Of a stretch of DNA of 64,000 nucleotides, positions 6,967 to 21,805 are shown piece by piece (position 1 is the stretch's first letter; the number at the start of each line of letters is the position of its first letter). The position numbers were made by a program, and so were the translations under genes. The DNA is from Candidatus Gottesmanbacteria bacterium (GTDB lineage Bacteria > Patescibacteriota > Microgenomatia > UBA10105 > UBA927), in assembly GCA_963701185.1 (NCBI GenBank), contig OY969569.1:859548-923547 (forward strand). Reading direction: 5' to 3'. The notes beneath the pieces are model-generated. The model was not told where the DNA came from. It was given only the letters and a program-made list of their open reading frames with translations, and made no database searches.

Positions 6967-7503
6967 TTGATATATACTGAATTCATGGTCGATACTGCCG
7001 ACGACACACAGGAAAAAGTCAAACAAGAGGTACTTCTGTCCTGGGCTTCTCCATCCCGTTTGTTCAAACGACGGGACAAAGAGTATTTCACCAATATCGG
7101 GGCGATTGTGTTTCTTCTTATCATTATTTTGGTATTTGCCCGGGAGTTTCTCCTTATTGCGGCCGTCGTATCCATCGTATTTCTGATTTACGTCCTTTCC
7201 ACCGTGCCGCCGGAGGAAGTGAGCCACCGGATTACGAATCTTGGGATCGAAAGTGCCGGGCACTATTACCGGTGGGAAGAGCTCTCCGAATTTTGGTATG
7301 AGGAGCAGTGGGGTCAGGCACTTTTGGTTCTGCGGCCGATCCTGGGAACCCGGATTATTATCCTTTTGGGAGCCCAGGATAAGGCACTCGTCCGCAAGCT
7401 TATCGCAGAATATATCCCGTACCGGGAAAATCCGGAGAAAAGCTGGGTAGATAACGCATCCTCCTGGTTGTCGAAGAAAATTCCCCTGGAGAAGCCTTCA
7501 TAG
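6967..7503 (+). CDS. Hypothetical membrane protein
   Basis: Two TM helices (IGAIVFLLIIILVF / LLIAAVVSIVFLIYVL). Confidence 0.4.
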   Translation: MIYTEFMVDTADDTQEKVKQEVLLSWASPSRLFKRRDKEYFTNIGAIVFLLIIILVFAREFLLIAAVVSIVFLIYVLSTVPPEEVSHRITNLGIESAGHYYRWEELSEFWYEEQWGQALLVLRPILGTRIIILLGAQDKALVRKLIAEYIPYRENPEKSWVDNASSWLSKKIPLEKPS

Positions 7504-7514
7504 CCGTTTTGCGG

Positions 7515-7520
7515 TATAAT
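7515..7520 (+). promoter_or_regulatory. -10 box TATAAT 10 nt upstream of the tRNA-Arg/tRNA-Ser pair
   Basis: GCGGTATAAT read directly. Confidence 0.45.
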
Positions 7521-7530
7521 AAGCCCTATT

Positions 7531-7605
7531 GTTCCTGTAGTTCAATGGATAGAATACGTCCCTGCGAAGGATGTGATTGCAGTTCGACTCTGCACAGGAA
7601 CGCCA
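7531..7605 (+). tRNA. tRNA-Arg, anticodon read as GCG (atypical for bacteria)
   Basis: Acceptor GTTCCTG/CAGGAAC, discriminator G, CCA encoded; anticodon stem CGTCC/GGATG, loop CTGCGAA; T-arm TGCAGTTCGACTCTGCA. Confidence 0.7.
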
Positions 7606-7608
7606 TTT

Positions 7609-7697
7609 GGAGAGGTGCAGGGAATGGTTATCCGGACAGTCTCGAAAACTGTTACCCCGCAAGGGGTTTGTGGGTTCGACTCCCACCCTCTCCGCCC
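7609..7697 (+). tRNA. tRNA-Ser (anticodon CGA)
   Basis: Acceptor GGAGAGG/CCTCTCC; anticodon stem-loop ACAGT-CTCGAAA-ACTGT; long variable arm; T-arm GTGGGTTCGACTCCCAC. Confidence 0.75.
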
Positions 7698-8111
7698 ATG
7701 ACTATCACCATCTGCGGCAGTATGCAGTTTCATCATGAAATGACCCAAATCCAGCTTTCGCTGGAGGATCAGGGGCATACGGTGTTGGTACCCAAAGATC
7801 TGACGATTCTTGAACAGAACGAGTCATATATGGGGACGGACGAAGAACGGATTTCCTCTAAAATTGAACACGATTTTATCCGCGAGCATTTTAAAAAGAT
7901 TGAAAAATCCGACGCGATACTCATACTCAATTACGAAAAAAAGAACATTGTCGGATATGTGGGGGGAAATACGTTTTTGGAAATGGGGTACGCGTTCGGG
8001 CTGGGGAAGAAGATTTATCTTTTATATCCGGTTCCGGAGATGGATTACAAGGTTGAAATGCATTCCATGAAGCCGGTTGTGTTACACGGGGATCTTTCAA
8101 CGCTACAGTAA
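7698..8111 (+). CDS. Nucleoside 2-deoxyribosyltransferase-like (Rcl/DNPH1 fold) protein
   Basis: GGNTFLEMGYAFGLGKKIYL matches the family G..E.G.A.G.GK motif; true ATG at 7698, the ORF-track N-terminus overlaps the tRNAs. Confidence 0.5.
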   Translation: MTITICGSMQFHHEMTQIQLSLEDQGHTVLVPKDLTILEQNESYMGTDEERISSKIEHDFIREHFKKIEKSDAILILNYEKKNIVGYVGGNTFLEMGYAFGLGKKIYLLYPVPEMDYKVEMHSMKPVVLHGDLSTLQ

Positions 8112-10120: not shown

Positions 10121-10193
10121 GCTCTCGTAGTTCAATGGATAGAATACGCCCCTCCGAAGGGTGTGATTGCAGTTCGACTCTGCACGAGAGCGC
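10121..10193 (+). tRNA. tRNA-Arg (anticodon CCG)
   Basis: Acceptor GCTCTCG/CGAGAGC; anticodon stem-loop CGCCC-CTCCGAA-GGGTG; D- and T-arms nearly identical to the tRNA at 7531. Confidence 0.8.
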
Positions 10194-10194
10194 A

Positions 10195-11106
10195 TTACCT
10201 GCTTACCCAATCTTTTACTTCCTGCAGGAGTCCCGAGCCGCTGGTAATCACAATACCAACAAGAACAAGGGCGGTGCCGAAAACAAACGCCGGTGAGATA
10301 GCTTCCTTCAGTACTGCGACATTGACGAGAATGGAGAAAACCGGCCCGATATAATTCTGAAGCGATGCGGTCGTTGCCGATGAGTGCTTAATTGCCCATT
10401 GGTACAAAAGATATGTGGCGACGGTAACGATCACGCCCAAGTGAAGAACAAGCAAAATCGTTGAAGGTTGAAGAAGAGTCGGTATATACGAAGGTTTAAA
10501 CGTAAACAGACTGATGACGAAAAATACGGCGGTTGTCGTAAATAAAAACATGCTTGTGACGGCGACAGGAGAGTACCCTTTATCTGCAATGGCCCGGCGT
10601 GAGCTGATTGTATAAAAGGACCATGCTATTGTGGCACATACAAAAAAGATATTTCCCGTTATGTTCCCTGAAACTGACTCACCCCGTGAAAAGGTCGGAA
10701 GAAAGGCTATAAAAAGAATTCCTGCAAATCCCACAAGAATACCTGTGAGTTTTTGCCTATTCAACCGTTCACCGATAAGATAGTGAGCTAAAATCGCGGT
10801 GAGCATCGGCGCGCCGGCGTAGGTGAGTGTCGCGGCATTGGCAGTGGAGAGTGATAATCCAAGATAATAAAAAAGGATGTTTATGGTGGCAAGAAGAGAA
10901 AAAGGGATGAGGTCGCGCATAAGATGCTTGCGTGTAACATTCGTTTTTAAAAAAATGGGCAAAATGACGAGTGAGGCTACAAAAAAACGAAGGAATGCGG
11001 CAAAATACGGGTCAAACTCCCGTACGATAATTTTGGAGAGCCCTGCGGTGGACCAGAGGAGCGAAGCCAGGATAATCGCAATAAGCGCTTTCGTGCGGGA
11101 AGACAT
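10195..11106 (-). CDS. EamA/DMT-family transporter
   Basis: 10-TM architecture with two EamA-like halves; starts 1 nt after the tRNA. Confidence 0.55.
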   Translation of the reverse strand: MSSRTKALIAIILASLLWSTAGLSKIIVREFDPYFAAFLRFFVASLVILPIFLKTNVTRKHLMRDLIPFSLLATINILFYYLGLSLSTANAATLTYAGAPMLTAILAHYLIGERLNRQKLTGILVGFAGILFIAFLPTFSRGESVSGNITGNIFFVCATIAWSFYTISSRRAIADKGYSPVAVTSMFLFTTTAVFFVISLFTFKPSYIPTLLQPSTILLVLHLGVIVTVATYLLYQWAIKHSSATTASLQNYIGPVFSILVNVAVLKEAISPAFVFGTALVLVGIVITSGSGLLQEVKDWVSR

Positions 11107-11125: not shown

Positions 11126-11134
11126 TAGCCTATT

Positions 11135-11223
11135 GGAGAGGTGTGATAATTGGTAGTCGCCTCGCTTGGAAAGCGAGTGTCCTGGAAACGGGATTAGGGG
11201 TTCGAATCCCCTCCTCTCCGCCC
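11135..11223 (+). tRNA. tRNA-Ser (anticodon GGA)
   Basis: Acceptor GGAGAGG/CCTCTCC; anticodon stem-loop CTCGC-TTGGAAA-GCGAG; long variable arm; T-arm AGGGGTTCGAATCCCCT. Confidence 0.75.
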
Positions 11224-11227
11224 GAAT

Positions 11228-11545
11228 ATGGATATACATGATTTAACGGAAAAAATTGAAAAGATATCGGAGAATTACTCGAAAAAATATCAATTCGAGC
11301 GTGACCCCGATTGGTTTGTGCTGAAGCTTCAGGAAGAGCTCGGTGAGCTTATTCAGGCGTACCTTATGGTGCAAGGCAAAGCGCGGCAAAAAGGTAAAAG
11401 CAAAGAACAAATCCGGGATGATTTCGAAAATGAGGTAGCAGATGTATTGGCGCATACCCTTCTTCTGGCCAAACATTTTCACGTTGACCTGGATAAGGTT
11501 TTTGAAGGGAAATGGCTGAAGTGGGCTCAAAAGGAAGACGCATGA
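11228..11545 (+). CDS. MazG-like nucleotide pyrophosphohydrolase
   Basis: EELGELIQA and ENEVADVLAHTLLLA helices typical of the MazG NTP-PPase domain. Confidence 0.6.
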   Translation: MDIHDLTEKIEKISENYSKKYQFERDPDWFVLKLQEELGELIQAYLMVQGKARQKGKSKEQIRDDFENEVADVLAHTLLLAKHFHVDLDKVFEGKWLKWAQKEDA

Positions 11546-12012
11546 TTACCTGCACGTTTGAAAAGGGAAATGCCGCGCGTCTGCGGCATGTGGTGGTGCA
11601 TGCCATTATTGAGATGGATGGGAAGCTGCTTTTGGAGAAACGGACCGGCGACCTTTTAGAGAGCGGTAAATGGAGTTTACCCTCAGGATTTCTGGACCGC
11701 GATGAGACGGCAGCCGAAGGCATTGTGCGGGAGGTGAAAGAAGAAACAGGATGGGATTGCAAAGTTATCTCTTTGTTCCGCATCAACACCAACCCCAACC
11801 GGCCGCATGAAGACCGTCAGAATGTTTCGATTGAATTTTTGGTGAAAGCAATTAAAAAAACCGGTGAAAAGGACGCCGAGTCATCCAAGGTTGAATGGAT
11901 TCCGATTGATAAGCTTATCCCGCTATCTGATTTCGCGTTTGATCACGGGGAAAGTATAGGATTGTACCTCACGTACAGGAAAACTCCGTTTCCACTCCCG
12001 ATTATGGTATAG
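11512..12012 (+). CDS. NUDIX hydrolase
   Basis: Nudix box GKWSLPSGFLDRDETAAEGIVREVKEETG; true start may be the internal Met at 11542. Confidence 0.7.
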   Translation: MAEVGSKGRRMITCTFEKGNAARLRHVVVHAIIEMDGKLLLEKRTGDLLESGKWSLPSGFLDRDETAAEGIVREVKEETGWDCKVISLFRINTNPNRPHEDRQNVSIEFLVKAIKKTGEKDAESSKVEWIPIDKLIPLSDFAFDHGESIGLYLTYRKTPFPLPIMV

Positions 12013-12022
12013 TTGCCCTGCT

Positions 12023-13762
12023 ATGGCTGACACAGATGAGATTAAATCCCGCATCAATATCGTTGACTATATCGGAAAGCGCGTAACGCTTAAAAAAACC
12101 GGCAGGAATTATAAGGGCTTGTGTCCGTTCCACAACGAAAAAACGCCGTCATTTATCGTATCTCCGGAGCGCCAAACCTTCCATTGCTTCGGTTGCTCCA
12201 AGGGTGGGGACATATTCGCATTTGTCATGGAATATGACCATGTGGATTTTGTCGAGGCGCTTGCGGAACTGGCGGAGATTACCGGCGTAAAGCTTACCCG
12301 CCGCGCGGGGGATACTCCGGAAGTCAAACTCAAGCAAAAAATATTTGAAGTCAACCATCTGGCGAGCGAGTACTATCAGTACATCCTCACCAAGCACAAG
12401 CTGGGTGAAAAGGCACGTGACTATCTCAAACACCGCGAGGTTAGCGACAAATCCATAAAAACATTTGCCTTAGGCTACAGCCCGAACAGCTGGGATGCCG
12501 CATCATCCTATTTAAAGAAAAAAGGATATGAAGAAAAACTTCTGGAGACGGCAGGGCTAACGATCAGGGGAAATAGAGACTACTATGACCGGTTCCGCGG
12601 CCGCGTCATGTTTACCCTGAAAGATCACAGAGGAAATGTCGTGGGGTTTTCCGGACGGGTTCTGGATTCTACGGCTAAAGAGGCAAAATACATTAATACA
12701 TCCGAAACGCCGGTCTATATCAAAGGGAATGTCCTTTATGGATTGGATGTGACCAAAGCTGCAATACAAAAAGAAAATGAGGCAATCGTTATGGAAGGGG
12801 AACTGGATTGTATTTCTTCATTTCAGGCGGGGATCAGTAACGTTGTGGCGATTAAAGGGTCTGCGCTCACCGAGGGGCATGTCAATCTCATCCGCCGGTA
12901 TACCGAAAAATTATTGTTTGCCCTCGATAGCGACATGGCAGGGGACGCCGCGGCGCGGCGCGGCATAGAGATGGCCGACCGCGCGGGGCTGGACATGCGC
13001 GTCGTGACCTTGCCGTCCGGGAAAGATCCTGATGATGCGGTGCGGGAAAACGCGGCTGCCGTGAAAAAAGCCATCAAAAACGCGATTCCCATCTATGATT
13101 ATTTCATAGCATCCGCCGTCAAACGCTTTGACGCGCAAACTGCGTTCGGGAAGAAAAAAGTAAGTGAGGAGCTCCTGCCGATTTTGGCAAAGATTGAAAA
13201 TCCGATCGTCCAGGGGCATTACATCAAAAAGCTGGCGGGCGCTCTGGATGCATCGGAGGAAACTGTTACGGAGAGTATGCGGAGGCTCCATAAAGGTGAG
13301 GGGTTTAGTGCCGTGAAAGGGGAAAAAACAGAGAAAATCACGACCCGTTCGCAAAAATTGGAGACGTACATGCTGGCATTGGTTCTGCAGGGGAAAACGG
13401 CTGAATTGTTTGAAGAATTATCAGAGAGGATTACCCTTGCGGACGTTGCCAATCCTGCCGTGCAAAAAATTTTGGAGCAATTACAATCGTTTTTGGCTGC
13501 CAATAAGGTATTTCTTATCAAGGATTTTGCCGATTCCCTGCCGGTTGAACTTGTTCCGACGCTGGACGAGGCGTTTTTATGGGACATTGGAGATCAACTG
13601 GGAGATGGGGAACTTTTTGCCCGCGAATGGATGTCGGTATTGCGGGAGATGGAGCGTGTCTTGGTGAAGCGGGAAATTCACATACTTACACGTGATCCGG
13701 ATCATGCAGATCAGCTTCGGGCGCTTACGGACCGCCTAAAAGCACTGGAAAAAGAAGGATAA
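12023..13762 (+). CDS. dnaG: DNA primase DnaG
   Basis: CHC2 zinc finger CPFHNEKTPSF...HCFGC; TOPRIM EGELDCISSFQAG; 579 aa; precedes rpoD. Confidence 0.9.
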   Translation: MADTDEIKSRINIVDYIGKRVTLKKTGRNYKGLCPFHNEKTPSFIVSPERQTFHCFGCSKGGDIFAFVMEYDHVDFVEALAELAEITGVKLTRRAGDTPEVKLKQKIFEVNHLASEYYQYILTKHKLGEKARDYLKHREVSDKSIKTFALGYSPNSWDAASSYLKKKGYEEKLLETAGLTIRGNRDYYDRFRGRVMFTLKDHRGNVVGFSGRVLDSTAKEAKYINTSETPVYIKGNVLYGLDVTKAAIQKENEAIVMEGELDCISSFQAGISNVVAIKGSALTEGHVNLIRRYTEKLLFALDSDMAGDAAARRGIEMADRAGLDMRVVTLPSGKDPDDAVRENAAAVKKAIKNAIPIYDYFIASAVKRFDAQTAFGKKKVSEELLPILAKIENPIVQGHYIKKLAGALDASEETVTESMRRLHKGEGFSAVKGEKTEKITTRSQKLETYMLALVLQGKTAELFEELSERITLADVANPAVQKILEQLQSFLAANKVFLIKDFADSLPVELVPTLDEAFLWDIGDQLGDGELFAREWMSVLREMERVLVKREIHILTRDPDHADQLRALTDRLKALEKEG

Positions 13763-16815: not shown

Positions 16816-18255
16816 TTAGTATTTAGTCTCATAGTATGTACTACTAGCACTCCCTTTTTGTTTAATTAAACCGAAGCTTACAAGTTTATTTAAATCGTTA
16901 ATTATTGTAGCCCTAGAACTATCGGGAAAAAGTCCTTGACATTCTCTAGAAGTAAGGTGCTTCTTCTCCAGAAGTACGTTCCAGATCATAATTTGTCGTT
17001 CGTTCAGCCCTTTAAATTTTTTTCCAAGTAAAATTACTCTAAAAGTATTTGACATATTTTTGAATATTGGATCTAACAAACCCCATTCAGACATTTTAGA
17101 AAATACTATATCTATTCCTCTTCCATATTCTTCTAAATAATCCATATCTTTAAGAATTTGAGCAATTATTTCGTTTCTACTGAATTGGGAGTCCTTTATA
17201 TTTTCTATTGTTACCCCAGGAGGAAGATTCCCCGGGTTGGAGATTTCCAGTCTATTTGAAAAAATATTAACTTGTGTATAAGTTTCTGTAATCATATAAT
17301 CTCTGTGAATAACTGCATTAGCGATAAGTTCGCGAATCGCATTTTCAGGATATTCGTACTGCTCAACTCGTTTAGTTCCTATAATTTTTGCACTCAATTC
17401 GATATTTCGTAGAATAAATTTCTGCATCATTTCAATGTGCTGATCCAGTGTTCCGTTTACATCTAATTTATCTACAATTGGGCTTGCAACAGAATCACCT
17501 TGGTATCTGACACATCGGACAATATATCTTGAAAAGGATTTTATTTTTTGAGGAATATATTTTGAAAAAATAAGATAGCCGCCTACTGTTGGGAATGTTC
17601 CATCTTCATATTCATCTGTTATTCCTAAGTTCCGCATTACTTCTTGTGAGGGGTGATTATTAACAGTTCCAATTCTGCCAGATTTAACAGCACTTTTTGT
17701 TAAAAAATCTTGAATTTTTTCTTTAGCAAGTTGATCAATTGTTGTACCTAAAGCTTTTGTCCTGTCAAACTTAAAAACCGAAGTATTTCTGATAAAATCC
17801 CGCATTTCTTCATCTGTGATTACTCTGTCAGTATTTCCTTCTCTGATGCAAGCACCTCGTGGAAGACTAAGATTATATAAATAGCATGGTTTCTTTTCAT
17901 CTGGTGTCTCATCGATAAATAAAGCTAATAAAGAGCGCCCACGATAAGAGAAGACTCGGAGATCGTAGCTTCCTACATTCCTCATCCCTTCATTCAAAAG
18001 AGAAACAATTTTTTCCTGAAGTATGGCTAAATCAAGACCACCTATGAAGTTTAATGTCCCAGACGGTCTGTTTTCTTTTACTCCAAAGATAATTACGCCC
18101 CCTTTGGGTCTATGTGAAAATGAGGATACCGGTTTCCAAAGATCACCGGGTATTCCCCCTCTTGCATCTTTGAATTCTATATTTGTTGTTTCAGTGCGAT
18201 TTGTTTCTGCCTTTTGTATTAGATTAAGAAGTTCGTCATCTGTCATGTTAATCAT
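16816..18255 (-). CDS. AlbA_2/Schlafen-like divergent-AAA ATP-binding protein with C-terminal HTH (RecG-C-terminal-like regulator family)
   Basis: N-terminal IEFKDARGG...GGVIIFGV block; central HATPase-like region; C-terminal wHTH; markedly AT-rich versus flanks. Confidence 0.45.
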   Translation of the reverse strand: MINMTDDELLNLIQKAETNRTETTNIEFKDARGGIPGDLWKPVSSFSHRPKGGVIIFGVKENRPSGTLNFIGGLDLAILQEKIVSLLNEGMRNVGSYDLRVFSYRGRSLLALFIDETPDEKKPCYLYNLSLPRGACIREGNTDRVITDEEMRDFIRNTSVFKFDRTKALGTTIDQLAKEKIQDFLTKSAVKSGRIGTVNNHPSQEVMRNLGITDEYEDGTFPTVGGYLIFSKYIPQKIKSFSRYIVRCVRYQGDSVASPIVDKLDVNGTLDQHIEMMQKFILRNIELSAKIIGTKRVEQYEYPENAIRELIANAVIHRDYMITETYTQVNIFSNRLEISNPGNLPPGVTIENIKDSQFSRNEIIAQILKDMDYLEEYGRGIDIVFSKMSEWGLLDPIFKNMSNTFRVILLGKKFKGLNERQIMIWNVLLEKKHLTSRECQGLFPDSSRATIINDLNKLVSFGLIKQKGSASSTYYETKY

Positions 18256-18349: not shown

Positions 18350-18358
18350 TGGTATAAT
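18350..18358 (+). promoter_or_regulatory. Extended -10 promoter TGGTATAAT for tRNA-Asn
   Basis: TGnTATAAT 19 nt upstream of the tRNA 5' end. Confidence 0.5.
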
Positions 18359-18376: not shown

Positions 18377-18630
18377 TCCCCTGTAGCTCAACGGTAGAGC
18401 GGCTTCCTGTTAAAAAGGCAGCTTTCCGTAGTAATACGGATTGAAAAATCGGGCTAATTCGGGGGACTCCCGACGTAATGTCGGGATTATCCCGAGCTAA
18501 TAAAAATGTGTAGAGACTATATACCCGAGTCTCGATCTTTTGATCGGACATGAGATAGTCCAGTCCTTTTGGTAACAAGAGGGGTTCTGTAAGAAGAAGG
18601 TTGGAGGTTCGAATCCTCCCGGGGGAGCCA
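18377..18630 (+). tRNA. tRNA-Asn (anticodon GTT) interrupted in the anticodon loop by a ~179-nt intron
   Basis: 5' exon TCCCCTGTAGCTCAACGGTAGAGCGGCTTCCTGT(T); 3' exon (T)AAGAAGAAGGTTGGAGGTTCGAATCCTCCCGGGGGAGCCA; joined exons give a canonical 75-nt tRNA-Asn with loop CTGTTAA, G73 and CCA. Confidence 0.75.
18411..18590 (+). ncRNA. Putative self-splicing (group I-like) intron in the tRNA-Asn anticodon loop, position 35/36-37
   Basis: At least six perfect hairpins; upstream exon ends in U; intron begins AAAAAGGCAG, which can pair with exon CUGUU as a P1/IGS helix with U.G; intron can end in G (CUG|U). Confidence 0.5.
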
Positions 18631-18676: not shown

Positions 18677-19789
18677 ATGATGGAGATGATGGGTGAATCC
18701 ACTTTTTTCCACAATAAATTTTTGACAGCCTTTTTGATTATTGTCGGAGTTATTATACTTCTTGCCGCATACTTTATATTCGTCCCTCAAAGAATGCGTG
18801 GTGGTCCGAGACCTGCCGGTTGGGGACAGCGGTCCGGTGACATGGAACAGTATTCTCTCGACACTCTCAAGCCCAAAGTAAAACCTCCTGCCCAGAAAAT
18901 CTCTGTGTATAAAGGTTTTTGGATGCCCTGCTCCTTTATGGATGATTCCTGCCAACCAATGAATGATCCAAAAATATTACAAGCTGCAGGAGCAAACATC
19001 GTAGGTATCGCTCCAAATATTGTCATTAACGAAAAGGGTGAAATTAACGCGTTGCCTTTGGACTATTTGGATAAGCGTCTCAATGAGCTGACTGAGCGGT
19101 ATTACAAAGCCGGTATAAGAGTTTTTATGTCGCCGGAGCTTGATTATACGACCGACTTACACAGTAGGTCCCGCGGTGAGCCGCGGCCGATTCCGAAAGA
19201 TATTGCGGCAAGACCGGGTTTTATGGACAAATATAATGTATTGGTCGAAGATTTAGCAAAATTAGCGGAAAAATATCAATTTGAGTTTTTTTCACCGCTC
19301 AACGAAGCAGACATGAAACTGGGGCCTGGAGTGGCATCAGCGTGGGGTCAGGAAATATTGCCGAAAATAAAGGAGAGATATAAGGGAAAAGTATTATGGA
19401 AAGTGGGACTGGGTGTCGGCTCGGAAATGCAGCAGATTAATTTTAAAGGGTACGATATGCTGGGAATTGACTTTACCGCATCCGGAGGAGATGAGGCGCA
19501 GAGTTTGTCCTCGTTTCCATCTATCGTAACAAACGCAATTGAGAATGCCAGAAGGATTGCCAACAGAGACGGCGTTTCCCAAGTACTATTGGCCGAAGTG
19601 GGCGTGTGGGGCGGGGCATTGCGTTTCAGCGAAGAAGGGAAGGCGAGAATTCATGATATCATCTTTGAGCAAGGGAAAGGAATTGTGAGTGGATTTATTA
19701 TTCTCGATCCGCCGGCAGATTTAGGAGGATGGACGATAAAGAATTCTACATCATTAGAAGAAATAAAAACGTGGTTTGGAAAGCTATGA
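18677..19789 (+). CDS. Membrane-anchored putative glycoside hydrolase-like (TIM-barrel) protein
   Basis: N-terminal TM; alternating beta/alpha pattern with conserved acidic residues (NEAD, LAEVG); weak call. Confidence 0.3.
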   Translation: MMEMMGESTFFHNKFLTAFLIIVGVIILLAAYFIFVPQRMRGGPRPAGWGQRSGDMEQYSLDTLKPKVKPPAQKISVYKGFWMPCSFMDDSCQPMNDPKILQAAGANIVGIAPNIVINEKGEINALPLDYLDKRLNELTERYYKAGIRVFMSPELDYTTDLHSRSRGEPRPIPKDIAARPGFMDKYNVLVEDLAKLAEKYQFEFFSPLNEADMKLGPGVASAWGQEILPKIKERYKGKVLWKVGLGVGSEMQQINFKGYDMLGIDFTASGGDEAQSLSSFPSIVTNAIENARRIANRDGVSQVLLAEVGVWGGALRFSEEGKARIHDIIFEQGKGIVSGFIILDPPADLGGWTIKNSTSLEEIKTWFGKL

Positions 19790-20193
19790 AAAATTTATGG
19801 ATAGCCATGGCTATTCTGATTGCCTTCGTCGTAGGGTATAGTGCCGGAAATCTTATTCCTTTTACCGGGTTTGCGTTTGCCGGAAAGAGCATAGAAGGTA
19901 CTGCGAAACTGGAAGTGAAACTGGTTCTGGACAACGGAATGCCCATCCCAAAAATTGAGGTTGATGTTGCAGATAAAACAGGCCCGCCGCCAAAAGGAGG
20001 GGTTGCGGTCACTGACGATAACGGTGTCGCCACTTTCAATATCAAACCCGGCAGTTACGTTATTTATTTTAACCTAGGCACGTTTCCTAAAAATCTTGAT
20101 TGGCCCCAAGGAGGGCCGGTAACTAGTATTCAGGTTTCAGATGGTGCTGTGAATCAAAAGATTCTTGTGTTGAAAGCAAAAAAAGGGAGTTAG
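19786..20193 (+). CDS. Membrane-anchored protein with Ig/carboxypeptidase-regulatory-like beta domain
   Basis: TM anchor; VTDDNGVATFNIKPGSYVIY beta-sandwich signature; ATGA overlap with the upstream gene. Confidence 0.35.
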   Translation: MKNLWIAMAILIAFVVGYSAGNLIPFTGFAFAGKSIEGTAKLEVKLVLDNGMPIPKIEVDVADKTGPPPKGGVAVTDDNGVATFNIKPGSYVIYFNLGTFPKNLDWPQGGPVTSIQVSDGAVNQKILVLKAKKGS

Positions 20194-20268
20194 GTTTCTG
20201 GTTTTGCAATTTTTTATTTCCTCCCACCGTTGCCTCATTTCACCAAAAGTTTTTGCTATACTGGTTCT

Positions 20269-20463
20269 ATGGGAATCATTAAGACGGAAGCAACATTAAC
20301 GTGTCCTAAGTGTGGCAAAGAACAATCAGTTACTATGCCCACCGATGCCTGTCAACACTTTTATAGGTGTATCCACTGTGGAGAAATGCTGAAACCCAAG
20401 GATGGTGATTGTTGTGTGTTTTGTTCTTATGCCGACAGCAAATGTCCGCCGAAGCAAATTTAA
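20269..20463 (+). CDS. Small Cys-rich zinc-ribbon protein
   Basis: CPKCG...CxxxxxCxHCG...GDCCVFCSYADSKCPP; extended -10 TGCTATACT at 20244-20252. Confidence 0.45.
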   Translation: MGIIKTEATLTCPKCGKEQSVTMPTDACQHFYRCIHCGEMLKPKDGDCCVFCSYADSKCPPKQI

Positions 20464-20465
20464 AT

Positions 20466-21185
20466 ATGCCTGCCACATCTTTCAAATACGCGTATCTTAT
20501 CGCAAACATCTTCTTTTTTGCAGTTTGGCTTTTTATCTTCCGGCGGGCCAAAAAATTGCGAAAGCCCATGCTTATCATGAGCCTGATTACCGCTTCATTT
20601 GGTCCTATTTCCGAGTTTTGGTATTTTGCTGATTATTGGAAACCGGCAATTGCGCTCCCTCTGCCAATCGGCGGGGTTGAGGATTTGCTTTTTGGCTTCT
20701 CCATCGGCGGGATTGGTGCGTTTGCGTATGAGTCGCTGTTTGTACGGGGTATCTGTAAGTGCGAAGAAAAGAAACTGAAACGCGAGTGGTTTTTGTTCGT
20801 GTTTTTTGCAGTCGTTGGTGTTTTAATGATCGTCCTCAATAATCTTTTAGGGCTAAACTCAATTTTTGCCAGCTCAATCGGAATGATTGTTGTTGCAATA
20901 ATTATGCTTTATATACGGCCGGATTTGATTCCGAATGCACTGGGATCGGCGCTTATGGTTGCCGGTGTGATGTTTGCTATCTATTTTGTAGGACAGGAAG
21001 TATTTCCGGGCGGTCATGCCTGGATGCTCCGTATATGGAAATTATCCAATACGCCTGAGGGGATCATTATTTTTAAGCATATACCATGGACGGAAATGCT
21101 CTGGGGGCTTTCATGGGGACTTGTCTGGGGTCCGATGTATGAATTTCTCGTGGGAGCACGGACGATGACGTTTCGAAAGAAGTAA
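20466..21185 (+). CDS. Polytopic membrane protein, hypothetical
   Basis: 6-7 TM helices. Confidence 0.4.
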   Translation: MPATSFKYAYLIANIFFFAVWLFIFRRAKKLRKPMLIMSLITASFGPISEFWYFADYWKPAIALPLPIGGVEDLLFGFSIGGIGAFAYESLFVRGICKCEEKKLKREWFLFVFFAVVGVLMIVLNNLLGLNSIFASSIGMIVVAIIMLYIRPDLIPNALGSALMVAGVMFAIYFVGQEVFPGGHAWMLRIWKLSNTPEGIIIFKHIPWTEMLWGLSWGLVWGPMYEFLVGARTMTFRKK

Positions 21186-21235
21186 CAGACGGAATAAACT
21201 GTTACGTTTTTCATCTTCCCCCGTTATAGTAGTAT

Positions 21236-21805
21236 ATGAACAAAAAATCTCTTCTGTTCTTCGTCGTGGGGTTCCTGTTAGCTTTCAGCCCGACAATGGT
21301 GTTTGCCAAAGATCGGAATACCGGTCATTTTGGAGATTTTAATCTGACTCGATTTTTTTCATCCGACCGCTCGGATGATAAAACTGTCGGCGGCAAGCAC
21401 GAACAAAACTTTTTTGGCCCCATTTCAGCGATGGGTACAGACGCTATTACCGTCAATGGACAGGTAATCACGCTTAACTGTGCAGGCATCAATACGGAAT
21501 CACGCGGAGTCTTAACCGTAGGTCAGTCTGTTCATGTCAATACCAGAGTAGTCGGCGACACGTTCTGTGCAAAAGAAATCAACCTTCGGGAGACTGATGA
21601 AACTGATGAAAATGAAAAAACTGATGAAAATGAGAAAGGTCCGTCGGGGGCAACAGGAATAATCGGTCCGACGGGAACCACAGGTGCGACCGGAACGACC
21701 GGCGCCACCGGGGCATCAGGAGCAACCGGCTCAACCGGCGCCACCGGAATGACAGTGGAAAACCTGTTGCAACTTATCTTGAATTTCCTCCAGTCACACC
21801 GCTAA
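21236..21805 (+). CDS. Secreted collagen-like (GxT triplet-repeat) protein
   Basis: Signal peptide; [14 protein letters not shown] acidic repeat; 15 G-x-T/G-x-S triplets. Confidence 0.6.

Follow-up and report, generated by a model that had tools for sequence, protein, structure and literature searches.

The window analysed here is a 64-kilobase (kb) stretch of contig OY969569.1 from a Candidatus Gottesmanbacteria-like bacterium. On its forward (+) strand, at 18377-18630, lies a tRNA-Asn(GUU) gene that is interrupted by an insertion of 179 nucleotides (nt), at 18411-18589, as can be read from the sequence. We consider it highly probable (roughly 0.88) that a group I intron with no open reading frame (ORF) splits this gene between U35 and U36, that the intron belongs to a published class inserted at tRNA positions 35/36, and that it is removed by the standard splicing pathway. 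The boundaries, the fold with its covariation, the homology to self-splicing introns and the taxon of the host are established in the present analysis. The gene comprises three parts.

18377-18410, + strand: 5' exon, tRNA-Asn positions 1-35, ending in C32 U33 G34 U35; sequence TCCCCTGTAGCTCAACGGTAGAGCGGCTTCCTGT.
18411-18589, + strand: group I intron of 179 nt, without an ORF, recognised by a match to family RF00028, by covariation and by homology.
18590-18627, + strand, with an encoded CCA at 18628-18630: 3' exon, TAAGAAGAAGGTTGGAGGTTCGAATCCTCCCGGGGGAG and then CCA, made up of U36 A37 A38, the 3' strand of the anticodon stem, the variable loop, the T arm, the 3' strand of the acceptor stem, G73 and CCA.

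Joined, the exons form a 75-nt tRNA-Asn(GUU) that is canonical once the intron is removed. For comparison, intronless genes were located via the neighbouring RpoD gene. Proteins labelled Candidatus Gottesmanbacteria or Patescibacteria group by NCBI share 90-99% identity with the window RpoD, and on this basis we assign the host to the Patescibacteria, class Microgenomatia. Locus L241, where RpoD is 99% identical, has an uninterrupted tRNA-Asn(GTT) at L241:7351-7425, and another is found at L245:4650-4722 (GCA_026396845.1, Candidatus Gottesmanbacteria). L245 is the orthologous locus, arranged as DnaG-RpoD-GH18-o217-tRNA-Asn-sortase-o968-GT2 with protein identities of 78-98%. The window 5' exon matches the first 34 nt of both intronless genes exactly, and the predicted ligated exons equal these genes, including an unusual G27.A43 mismatch, save for compensatory changes in the T stem (GGAGG/CCTCC in the window, CCAGG/CCTGG in L241 and GCAGG/CCTGC in L245). 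A first-pass annotation of this DNA had described a tRNA-Asn(GUU) split in its anticodon loop by about 179 nt, with exons that join into a normal 75-nt tRNA, and both statements hold against the orthologues. The G27.A43 mismatch (18402 and 18597 in the window) lies at the top of the anticodon stem. No pair forms there in L241, in L245 or in 27 of 35 intron-bearing relatives, which are diverse members of the intron's subfamily aligned with MAFFT (alignment A1). The mismatch is a trait of the lineage rather than a sign of decay.

The sequence TTAA/TAA is common to both junctions, so that four cut positions would give an equal product. A U before the 5' splice site together with a G at the intron's 3' end is found only when the cuts fall after U18410 and G18589. 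As only this pair of cuts fits the U/G rule of group I introns, the insertion site is 35/36, within the anticodon; the first-pass annotation had placed it exactly after the anticodon and had equated it with the site of the Azoarcus tRNA-Ile intron, which lies at 36/37. The boundary pattern is thus CTGT/intron...G/TAAG. Published sequences are split likewise, and the CTGT that closes the 5' exon is unchanged in the 35 aligned relatives.

In neither default nor intron mode did ARAGORN report a tRNA-Asn at 18377-18630. Its default mode instead gave a tRNA-Thr(GGU) at 18536-18630, and its intron mode a tRNA-Gln(CUG) with a 177-nt intron at 31/32. If either were right, the exons would belong to another tRNA with other boundaries, and the TTCTG just ahead of the 3' splice site does mimic the TCCTG of the 5' exon. 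However, under the Gln parse the 5' splice site would follow a C and the P1 helix would be disregarded, and the mimic is missing in relatives (GAACTG in L008, TAAGTG in L125). The intronless genes of L241 and L245 contain CTGTTAAGAAGA, as the Asn parse predicts. The agreement of these genes with the predicted ligated exons excludes both the Gln and the Thr parse; the intron-bearing relatives contradict them too, and the chance that either is correct is close to nil. ARAGORN and tFind have been documented to miss or mislabel genes carrying this same class of intron (Nakagawa et al. 2026, PMC13011429). No other tRNA-Asn was found in the 64-kb window with ARAGORN or Rfam.

The insertion matches the group I family RF00028 at 18396-18582 with 54.8 bits (gathering score 50), over model positions 1-253, which is the full length of the model. 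The E-value is 3.6e-11 when the whole window is searched and 2.3e-13 when the search is confined to the local stretch, and RF00028 is the sole RNA family other than tRNA detected in the 64 kb. The minimum free energy (MFE) of the region is far below that of shuffled sequences (z = -4.6). The single-sequence MFE fold was dropped as a structural model, as it pairs GAGACU with AGUCUC and cannot represent the P3/P7 pseudoknot. The standard group I helices P1-P9.0 were instead drawn on the window sequence, and pairs were then counted over the relatives. The resulting elements (P, paired; J, joining; L, loop) are given below, with counts that refer to the 35 relatives of alignment A1.

18407-18421, + strand: P1, formed by C18407-G18421, U18408-A18420, G18409-C18419, U18410.G18418 and U18411.G18417, with loop AAAAA.
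18425-18440, + strand: P2 hairpin of 6 base pairs (bp), with the GUAA tetraloop L2 at 18431-18434; two-sided changes at 6 of 6 pairs.
18449-18453, + strand: 5' strand of P3, UCGGG, partner of 18524-18528; two-sided changes at 3 of 5 pairs, and 99.4% of cells paired.
18459-18495, + strand: P4 (18459-18464 with 18490-18495) around P5 (18468-18474 with 18480-18486), with loop GUAAU.
18496-18509, + strand: P6 remnant, G18496.U18509 and C18497-G18508 around a 10-nt A-rich loop.
18513-18519, + strand: 5' strand of P7, G18513, bulged A18514 and GACUA at 18515-18519; partner at 18556-18561.
18524-18528, + strand: 3' strand of P3, CCCGA, after the 4-nt J7/3 UAUA and with P8 immediately next.
18529-18549, + strand: P8 hairpin of 8 bp, with bulged U18532 and loop UUUU; covariation at 7 of 8 pairs.
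18550-18561, + strand: J8/7 AUGAGA and the 3' strand of P7, UAGUCC; conserved block GAGATAGTCC.
18562-18588, + strand: P9.0 (A18562-U18588 and G18563-C18587) around P9 (18564-18571 with 18576-18583).
18589, + strand: omega-G, the final intron nucleotide; G in 35 of 35 relatives (alignment G213).

Standard pairs occupy 92.4% of the alignment cells, compared to 36-48% after a shift of the 3' partners by 1-3 columns, and 49 of the 76 pairs are altered on both sides. The covariation score of 0.464 was reached by none of 500 shuffles, which gave 0.144. We see covariation in P2, P3, P5 (7 of 7 pairs), P8, P9 (6 of 8 pairs), P9.0 and the inner P1 pair. The latter varies as CG 20, GC 9, UG 4 and AU 2, and the second pair of P9.0 as GC 14, AU 9 and CG 5. 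The distal part of P8 varies in length among the relatives, and P4, with its 6 bp, is invariant; the internal loop J4/5 is GA/UA. In P1, U18410.G18418 is the wobble of the 5' splice site and U18411 the first intron base, and the four exon pairs, wobble included, are unchanged in 35 of 35 relatives. P7 (G, bulged A, GACUA / UAGUCC) is likewise invariant, its 5' strand having been set by the search pattern. The GAGATAGTCC block agrees with the Rfam consensus AAGAUAUAGUC, and L9 is a GUAA tetraloop (18572-18575). The pseudoknotted P3-P7-P8 core is thus present, with the bulged A and the G-C pair of P7. By analogy with Tetrahymena (G264-C311) and Azoarcus, G18515-C18560 is the predicted guanosine-binding pair.

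Much of what the first-pass annotation had proposed about the insertion is borne out by these data: the group I identity itself, through the Rfam score, the covariation and the self-splicing homologues; and a P1 in which intron GGCAG pairs with the exon, here with its CUGU, by way of a U.G pair, together with the intron-terminal G. A P3-P7 catalytic core can also be folded from the insert: P3 and P8 covary and P7 is present. Of the five perfect hairpins in that annotation, two survive, CCGTA/TACGG as P2 and GATC/GATC as the distal part of P8. In each of the other three (GAGACT/AGTCTC, GGAC/GTCC and TCGGGA/TCCCGA) the paired strands are parts of separate conserved helices. Compensatory change is absent from these three, and they pair in 61% of cases in the 35 relatives, just as in shuffles.

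On this model, a pre-tRNA of about 254 nt would be transcribed, probably from TGGTATAAT, and its intron would fold into P1-P9.0, with the 5' splice site set by the U18410.G18418 wobble. Exogenous guanosine, held at G18515-C18560 in P7, would attack after U35. The omega-G at 18589, placed by P9.0, would next occupy the same guanosine site, and the freed 3'-OH of U35 would attack the bond ahead of U36 (18590). Ligation of the exons would yield the 75-nt tRNA with its GUU anticodon intact and the junction CUGUUAAG. As in other compact tRNA introns, the small core is probably stabilised by docking of both GUAA tetraloops (L2 and L9) on P8 and P5. The proposed start signal was read by eye, as follows.

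18350-18358, + strand: TGGTATAAT, an extended -10-like element, 18 nt upstream of tRNA position 1.

In the intronless relative L241, TGATATAAT stands at the corresponding position. TGGTATAAT could act as an extended -10 promoter. A simple promoter and terminator scan listed no element on the + strand, and TGGTATAAT went unlisted there because it has no -35 hexamer.

Two scans of a sequence collection with core patterns gave at least 240 loci, and the subfamily counts that follow describe this sample, among the matches listed, rather than a census. Exons were parsed by scoring the acceptor, anticodon and T stems jointly. Of 107 subfamily pre-tRNAs parsed in this way, 92 are tRNA-Asn(GUU) and 15 tRNA-Asp(GUC), and all 107 are split as CTGT/...G/N36. 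The 101 distinct relatives are 173-242 nt long, with a median near 191 nt. Five distinct introns are shorter than 179 nt (two of 173 nt, and one each of 174, 176 and 178 nt), and eight, including that of the window, are exactly 179 nt. The first-pass suggestion of a minimal ribozyme smaller than the 205-nt Azoarcus intron is therefore right as to length, but the window intron is not singular, as many compact relatives measure 173-200 nt.

What does set the window intron apart from most of these relatives is P6. Within its P4-P5-P6 domain, P4 has 6 bp and P5 has 7 bp, and P6 is reduced to 2 bp. The gap from GAGCTAA to AAATGTG is 3 nt (TAA) in the window, L125 and L169, whereas in other relatives it is 13-31 nt and holds a covarying hairpin; the P6 hairpin is present in 98 of the 101 distinct relatives. 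L169 (180 nt) has the same exons as the window and an intron that is 76% identical, in which 47 of 51 intron pairs are kept with 14 two-sided compensatory changes. L125 (180 nt) has different exons and an intron that is 71% identical, with 44 of 51 intron pairs kept and 10 two-sided compensatory changes. This divergence with compensatory change indicates that the hairpin-less form is maintained under selection. The introns most similar to that of the window among the matches listed, L226 (90% identical) and L154 (85%), retain the hairpin, which suggests that it may have been lost more than once.

The loss of the P6 hairpin also bears on two other accounts of the locus. In one of these, the P6 deletion has disabled the intron, which would then be a decayed and catalytically dead relic in a tRNA-Asn pseudogene, with another copy beyond the window in use. 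The two-pair P6, so unlike 98 of the 101 distinct relatives, would suit such a relic, as would the intronless tRNA-Asn genes of close relatives, which show that intronless alleles circulate in the lineage, and the fact that the visible part of the genome is 64 kb. Against this, all other helices, the U.G wobble, the omega-G and P9.0 are intact, the exons match functional-looking orthologues, and a -10-like element is present. Moreover, two hairpin-less sequences that are 24-29% divergent, with 10-14 compensatory double changes, point to purifying selection on the fold. The gene also occupies the orthologous tRNA-Asn locus, no other tRNA-Asn was found in the window, and intron-containing and intronless copies of one anticodon seldom share a genome (Nakagawa et al., PMC13011429). 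We therefore rate a dead relic as very improbable.

Somewhat less improbable, though still unlikely, is a genuine and functional group I intron whose truncated P4-P6 domain makes splicing depend on a protein or other cofactor in the cell. The loss of the P6 hairpin would fit this too. The intron encodes no protein, and in vivo many group I introns rely on protein facilitators such as CYT-18 and Mrs1. However, the GNRA tetraloops L2 and L9 are kept and could give tertiary stabilisation, the proteomes of Patescibacteria are reduced, and the neighbourhood of the gene shows no evident candidate for a cofactor gene. In addition, homologues of 196 and 234 nt self-splice protein-free (PMC13011429).

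Several points weigh against our preferred reading, that of a group I intron of the 35/36 class excised by the standard pathway. Catalysis by the window copy is a prediction from its family and from tested homologues. P4, the base of P6 and P7 add no evidence from covariation, because the retrieval patterns partly fixed them, and a MAFFT alignment combined with a structure taken from the window sequence somewhat favours the unslid register. A P6 of two pairs may weaken the usual J3/4-P6 triples, so that the intron could be less active on its own than the tested homologues. The genome could also hold a second, uninterrupted tRNA-Asn outside the visible 64 kb. For the stronger proposal that the hairpin-less copies of 179-180 nt (window, L169 and L125) are fully autonomous self-splicing ribozymes, in which the P6 extension is dispensable and has been lost repeatedly, we see the odds as evenly balanced. 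If this proved true, few natural self-splicing group I introns would be smaller than these three, which fall below both the 184-nt minimum of the published survey and the 205 nt of Azoarcus; relatives of 173-178 nt with a short P6 hairpin would be smaller still. Our search of the literature on the smallest group I intron found nothing pertinent, and the group I intron database paper states no minimum length.

The class to which we assign the intron has been described by Nakagawa et al. (PMC13011429), who found, in 95 complete Patescibacteria genomes, 15 tRNA-Asn(GUU) and 3 tRNA-Asp(GUC) genes split at 35/36 by group I introns. They showed self-splicing in vitro for an Asn intron of 234 nt and an Asp intron of 196 nt, sequenced the ligated tRNA to confirm excision at 35/36, and found that an omega-G to C mutation blocked exon ligation in the two tested homologues (PMC13011429). 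The window intron shares with this class the host phylum, the tRNA, the site (CTGT/...G/TAA), the U.G and omega-G boundaries, the mislabelling by annotation tools and the lack of a homing endonuclease gene. With the self-splicing 196-nt tRNA-Asp intron of GCA_001029755.1 it shares 72% identity over 172 aligned nt. The blocks GGCAGC, GGCTAATTCGGGG, ATCCCGAGCTAA, AAATGTGTAGAGACTATATACC and GAGATAGTCC are common to the window intron and to Microgenomatia tRNA-Asp introns (Table S3/S4), and the window core matches those of GCA_001029755.1 (196 nt), for which self-splicing is shown, and GCA_030583725.1 (184 nt). None of the compact 'GGCTAATTCGGGG...GAGCTAA...AAATGTGTAGAGACTATATACC' subfamily appears among the 15 published tRNA-Asn intron sequences in the parts of that source available to us. 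In those parts the compact subfamily is confined to tRNA-Asp, but it is mostly tRNA-Asn in metagenomes (92 of 107, among the matches listed). The survey covers 333 bacterial tRNA group I introns of 184-894 nt (PMC13011429), so the 179-nt window intron falls under the published range, and its P6 hairpin is deleted to leave 2 bp. These two features are mildly new, and neither is unique to the window copy. In short, the window intron is a slightly smaller new example of a class whose description and experimental validation date from 2025-2026.

It is less simple to place the intron in a subgroup. The first-pass annotation had proposed IC3, and membership of IC3 is unproven. A J7/3 of 4 nt and a P8 that abuts the 3' strand of P3 leave no room for IA-type P7.1/P7.2. 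Among the matches listed for the core pattern AATTCGGGG..ATCCCGAG..GTAGAGACTA are more than 120 introns that Proteobacteria and Acidobacteria carry in tRNA-Leu, -Arg, -Ser and -Phe, and the P4 and P7 core sequence is common to the window intron and many classical bacterial tRNA introns. In the part of Table S5 available to us, two Acidobacteriota tRNA-Ile2 introns labelled IC3 have core blocks near-identical to those of the window. Nakagawa et al. report that Patescibacteria tRNA introns are nearly all IA and that none is IC (PMC13011429). The insertion class of the window intron is '4Ug' (35/36), as against the 'Ile2.5Ug' of the Azoarcus-type tRNA-Ile intron, which is 36/37 in Williams' numbering; a 2020 preprint by Williams raised the number of intron-split tRNA classes to 21, with 'Asn.4Ug' included according to Nakagawa et al.

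Comparison with two well-known systems places the window intron further. Like the Azoarcus intron, it is a compact bacterial intron in a tRNA anticodon loop, with only P1-P9 and P9.0 and with GNRA tetraloops on P2 and P9. The intron of Azoarcus sp. BH72 pre-tRNA-Ile is reportedly of subgroup IC3 and 205 nt long, and is said to have been described by Reinhold-Hurek and Shub in 1992, with a crystal structure by Adams et al. in 2004. The J6/7-P7 segment of the window intron, GUGUAGAGACUA, reportedly occurs in Azoarcus too. The two differ in that the window intron is inserted at 35/36 rather than 36/37, resides in another tRNA and phylum, is 26 nt shorter, and has a vestigial P6 where Azoarcus has P6/P6a. 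Published subgroup calls also put Patescibacteria tRNA introns outside IC, unlike that of Azoarcus. The cyanobacterial and plastid tRNA-Leu(UAA) intron is of subgroup IC3 and about 249 nt long in Nostoc PCC 7120. It too lies within the anticodon of a bacterial tRNA, is of a self-splicing kind and has the core motifs AAUUCGGGG / AUCCCGAG / GUAGAGACU in common with the window intron, but it differs in its site (34/35), its greater length, its elaborated P6 and P9, and its host range.

The intron is variably present among very close relatives, where the same tRNA-Asn gene is seen with or without it. Three loci with a 97% identical RpoD (L242-L244) have the exons of the window, but the intron at this site is another one, of 195 nt. 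This suggests fairly frequent gain, exchange or precise loss, with no homing endonuclease involved. The surroundings of the gene vary as well. Relative to the L245 locus, extra genes flank the window tRNA-Asn at 16816-18255 (- strand) and 18677-21805 (+ strand); upstream this is a 479-amino-acid ORF in a stretch of low GC content (0.38), and downstream four ORFs precede the sortase gene. They look like island insertions beside a tRNA gene. In L241 (7384-9588), the intronless tRNA-Asn is followed directly by two serine recombinase/resolvase genes and small ORFs, which may be an integrated element that targets tRNA-Asn. The first 11 kb of the window contain six more tRNA genes (198-374, 7531-7698, 10121-10193 and 11134-11223), namely tRNA-Ser GCU, UGA, CGA and GGA and tRNA-Arg GCG and CCG, some of them as adjacent pairs.

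Further oddities were seen among the relatives. The nearly universal U55 is replaced by C in L132, L122 and L230 (A1 columns 306-312), and also in L160, L185, L211, L213, L223 and L234. The tRNA-Asn 3' exons of L141 and L204 hold about 27 nt, including the hairpin CCCCGCC-AT-GGCGGGG, between GTAGG and CCTAC instead of a 7-nt T loop; these genes also carry an anticodon-loop intron, and the T-loop insert may be a second insertion or the mark of a damaged gene. On each of two metagenome contigs, two intron-containing tRNA-Asn genes lie on opposite strands 1.2-3 kb apart: L129, at 7431-7681 (+) and 10391-10656 (-) with introns of 179 and 194 nt, and L162, at 11459-11722 (+) and 12898-13161 (-). 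Two bins labelled 'uncultured Gammaproteobacteria' (L013 and L092) have a Microgenomatia-type tRNA-Asp with an intron of this subfamily, and these contigs may be mis-binned.

Overall, the published picture of these introns is unchanged and slightly extended. As ARAGORN labels the gene Thr or Gln, a genome bin carrying it would wrongly seem to be without tRNA-Asn, and thus less complete, an annotation point also raised by Nakagawa et al. (PMC13011429). The compact subfamily of 173-200 nt, with its hairpin-less copies, offers natural experiments on the minimum size of a self-splicing group I core, and such introns could be short scaffolds for permuted-intron designs of circular RNA. Present in one Gottesmanbacteria genome, missing at the orthologous locus of another and devoid of a homing endonuclease, the intron provides a tractable case of gain or precise loss.

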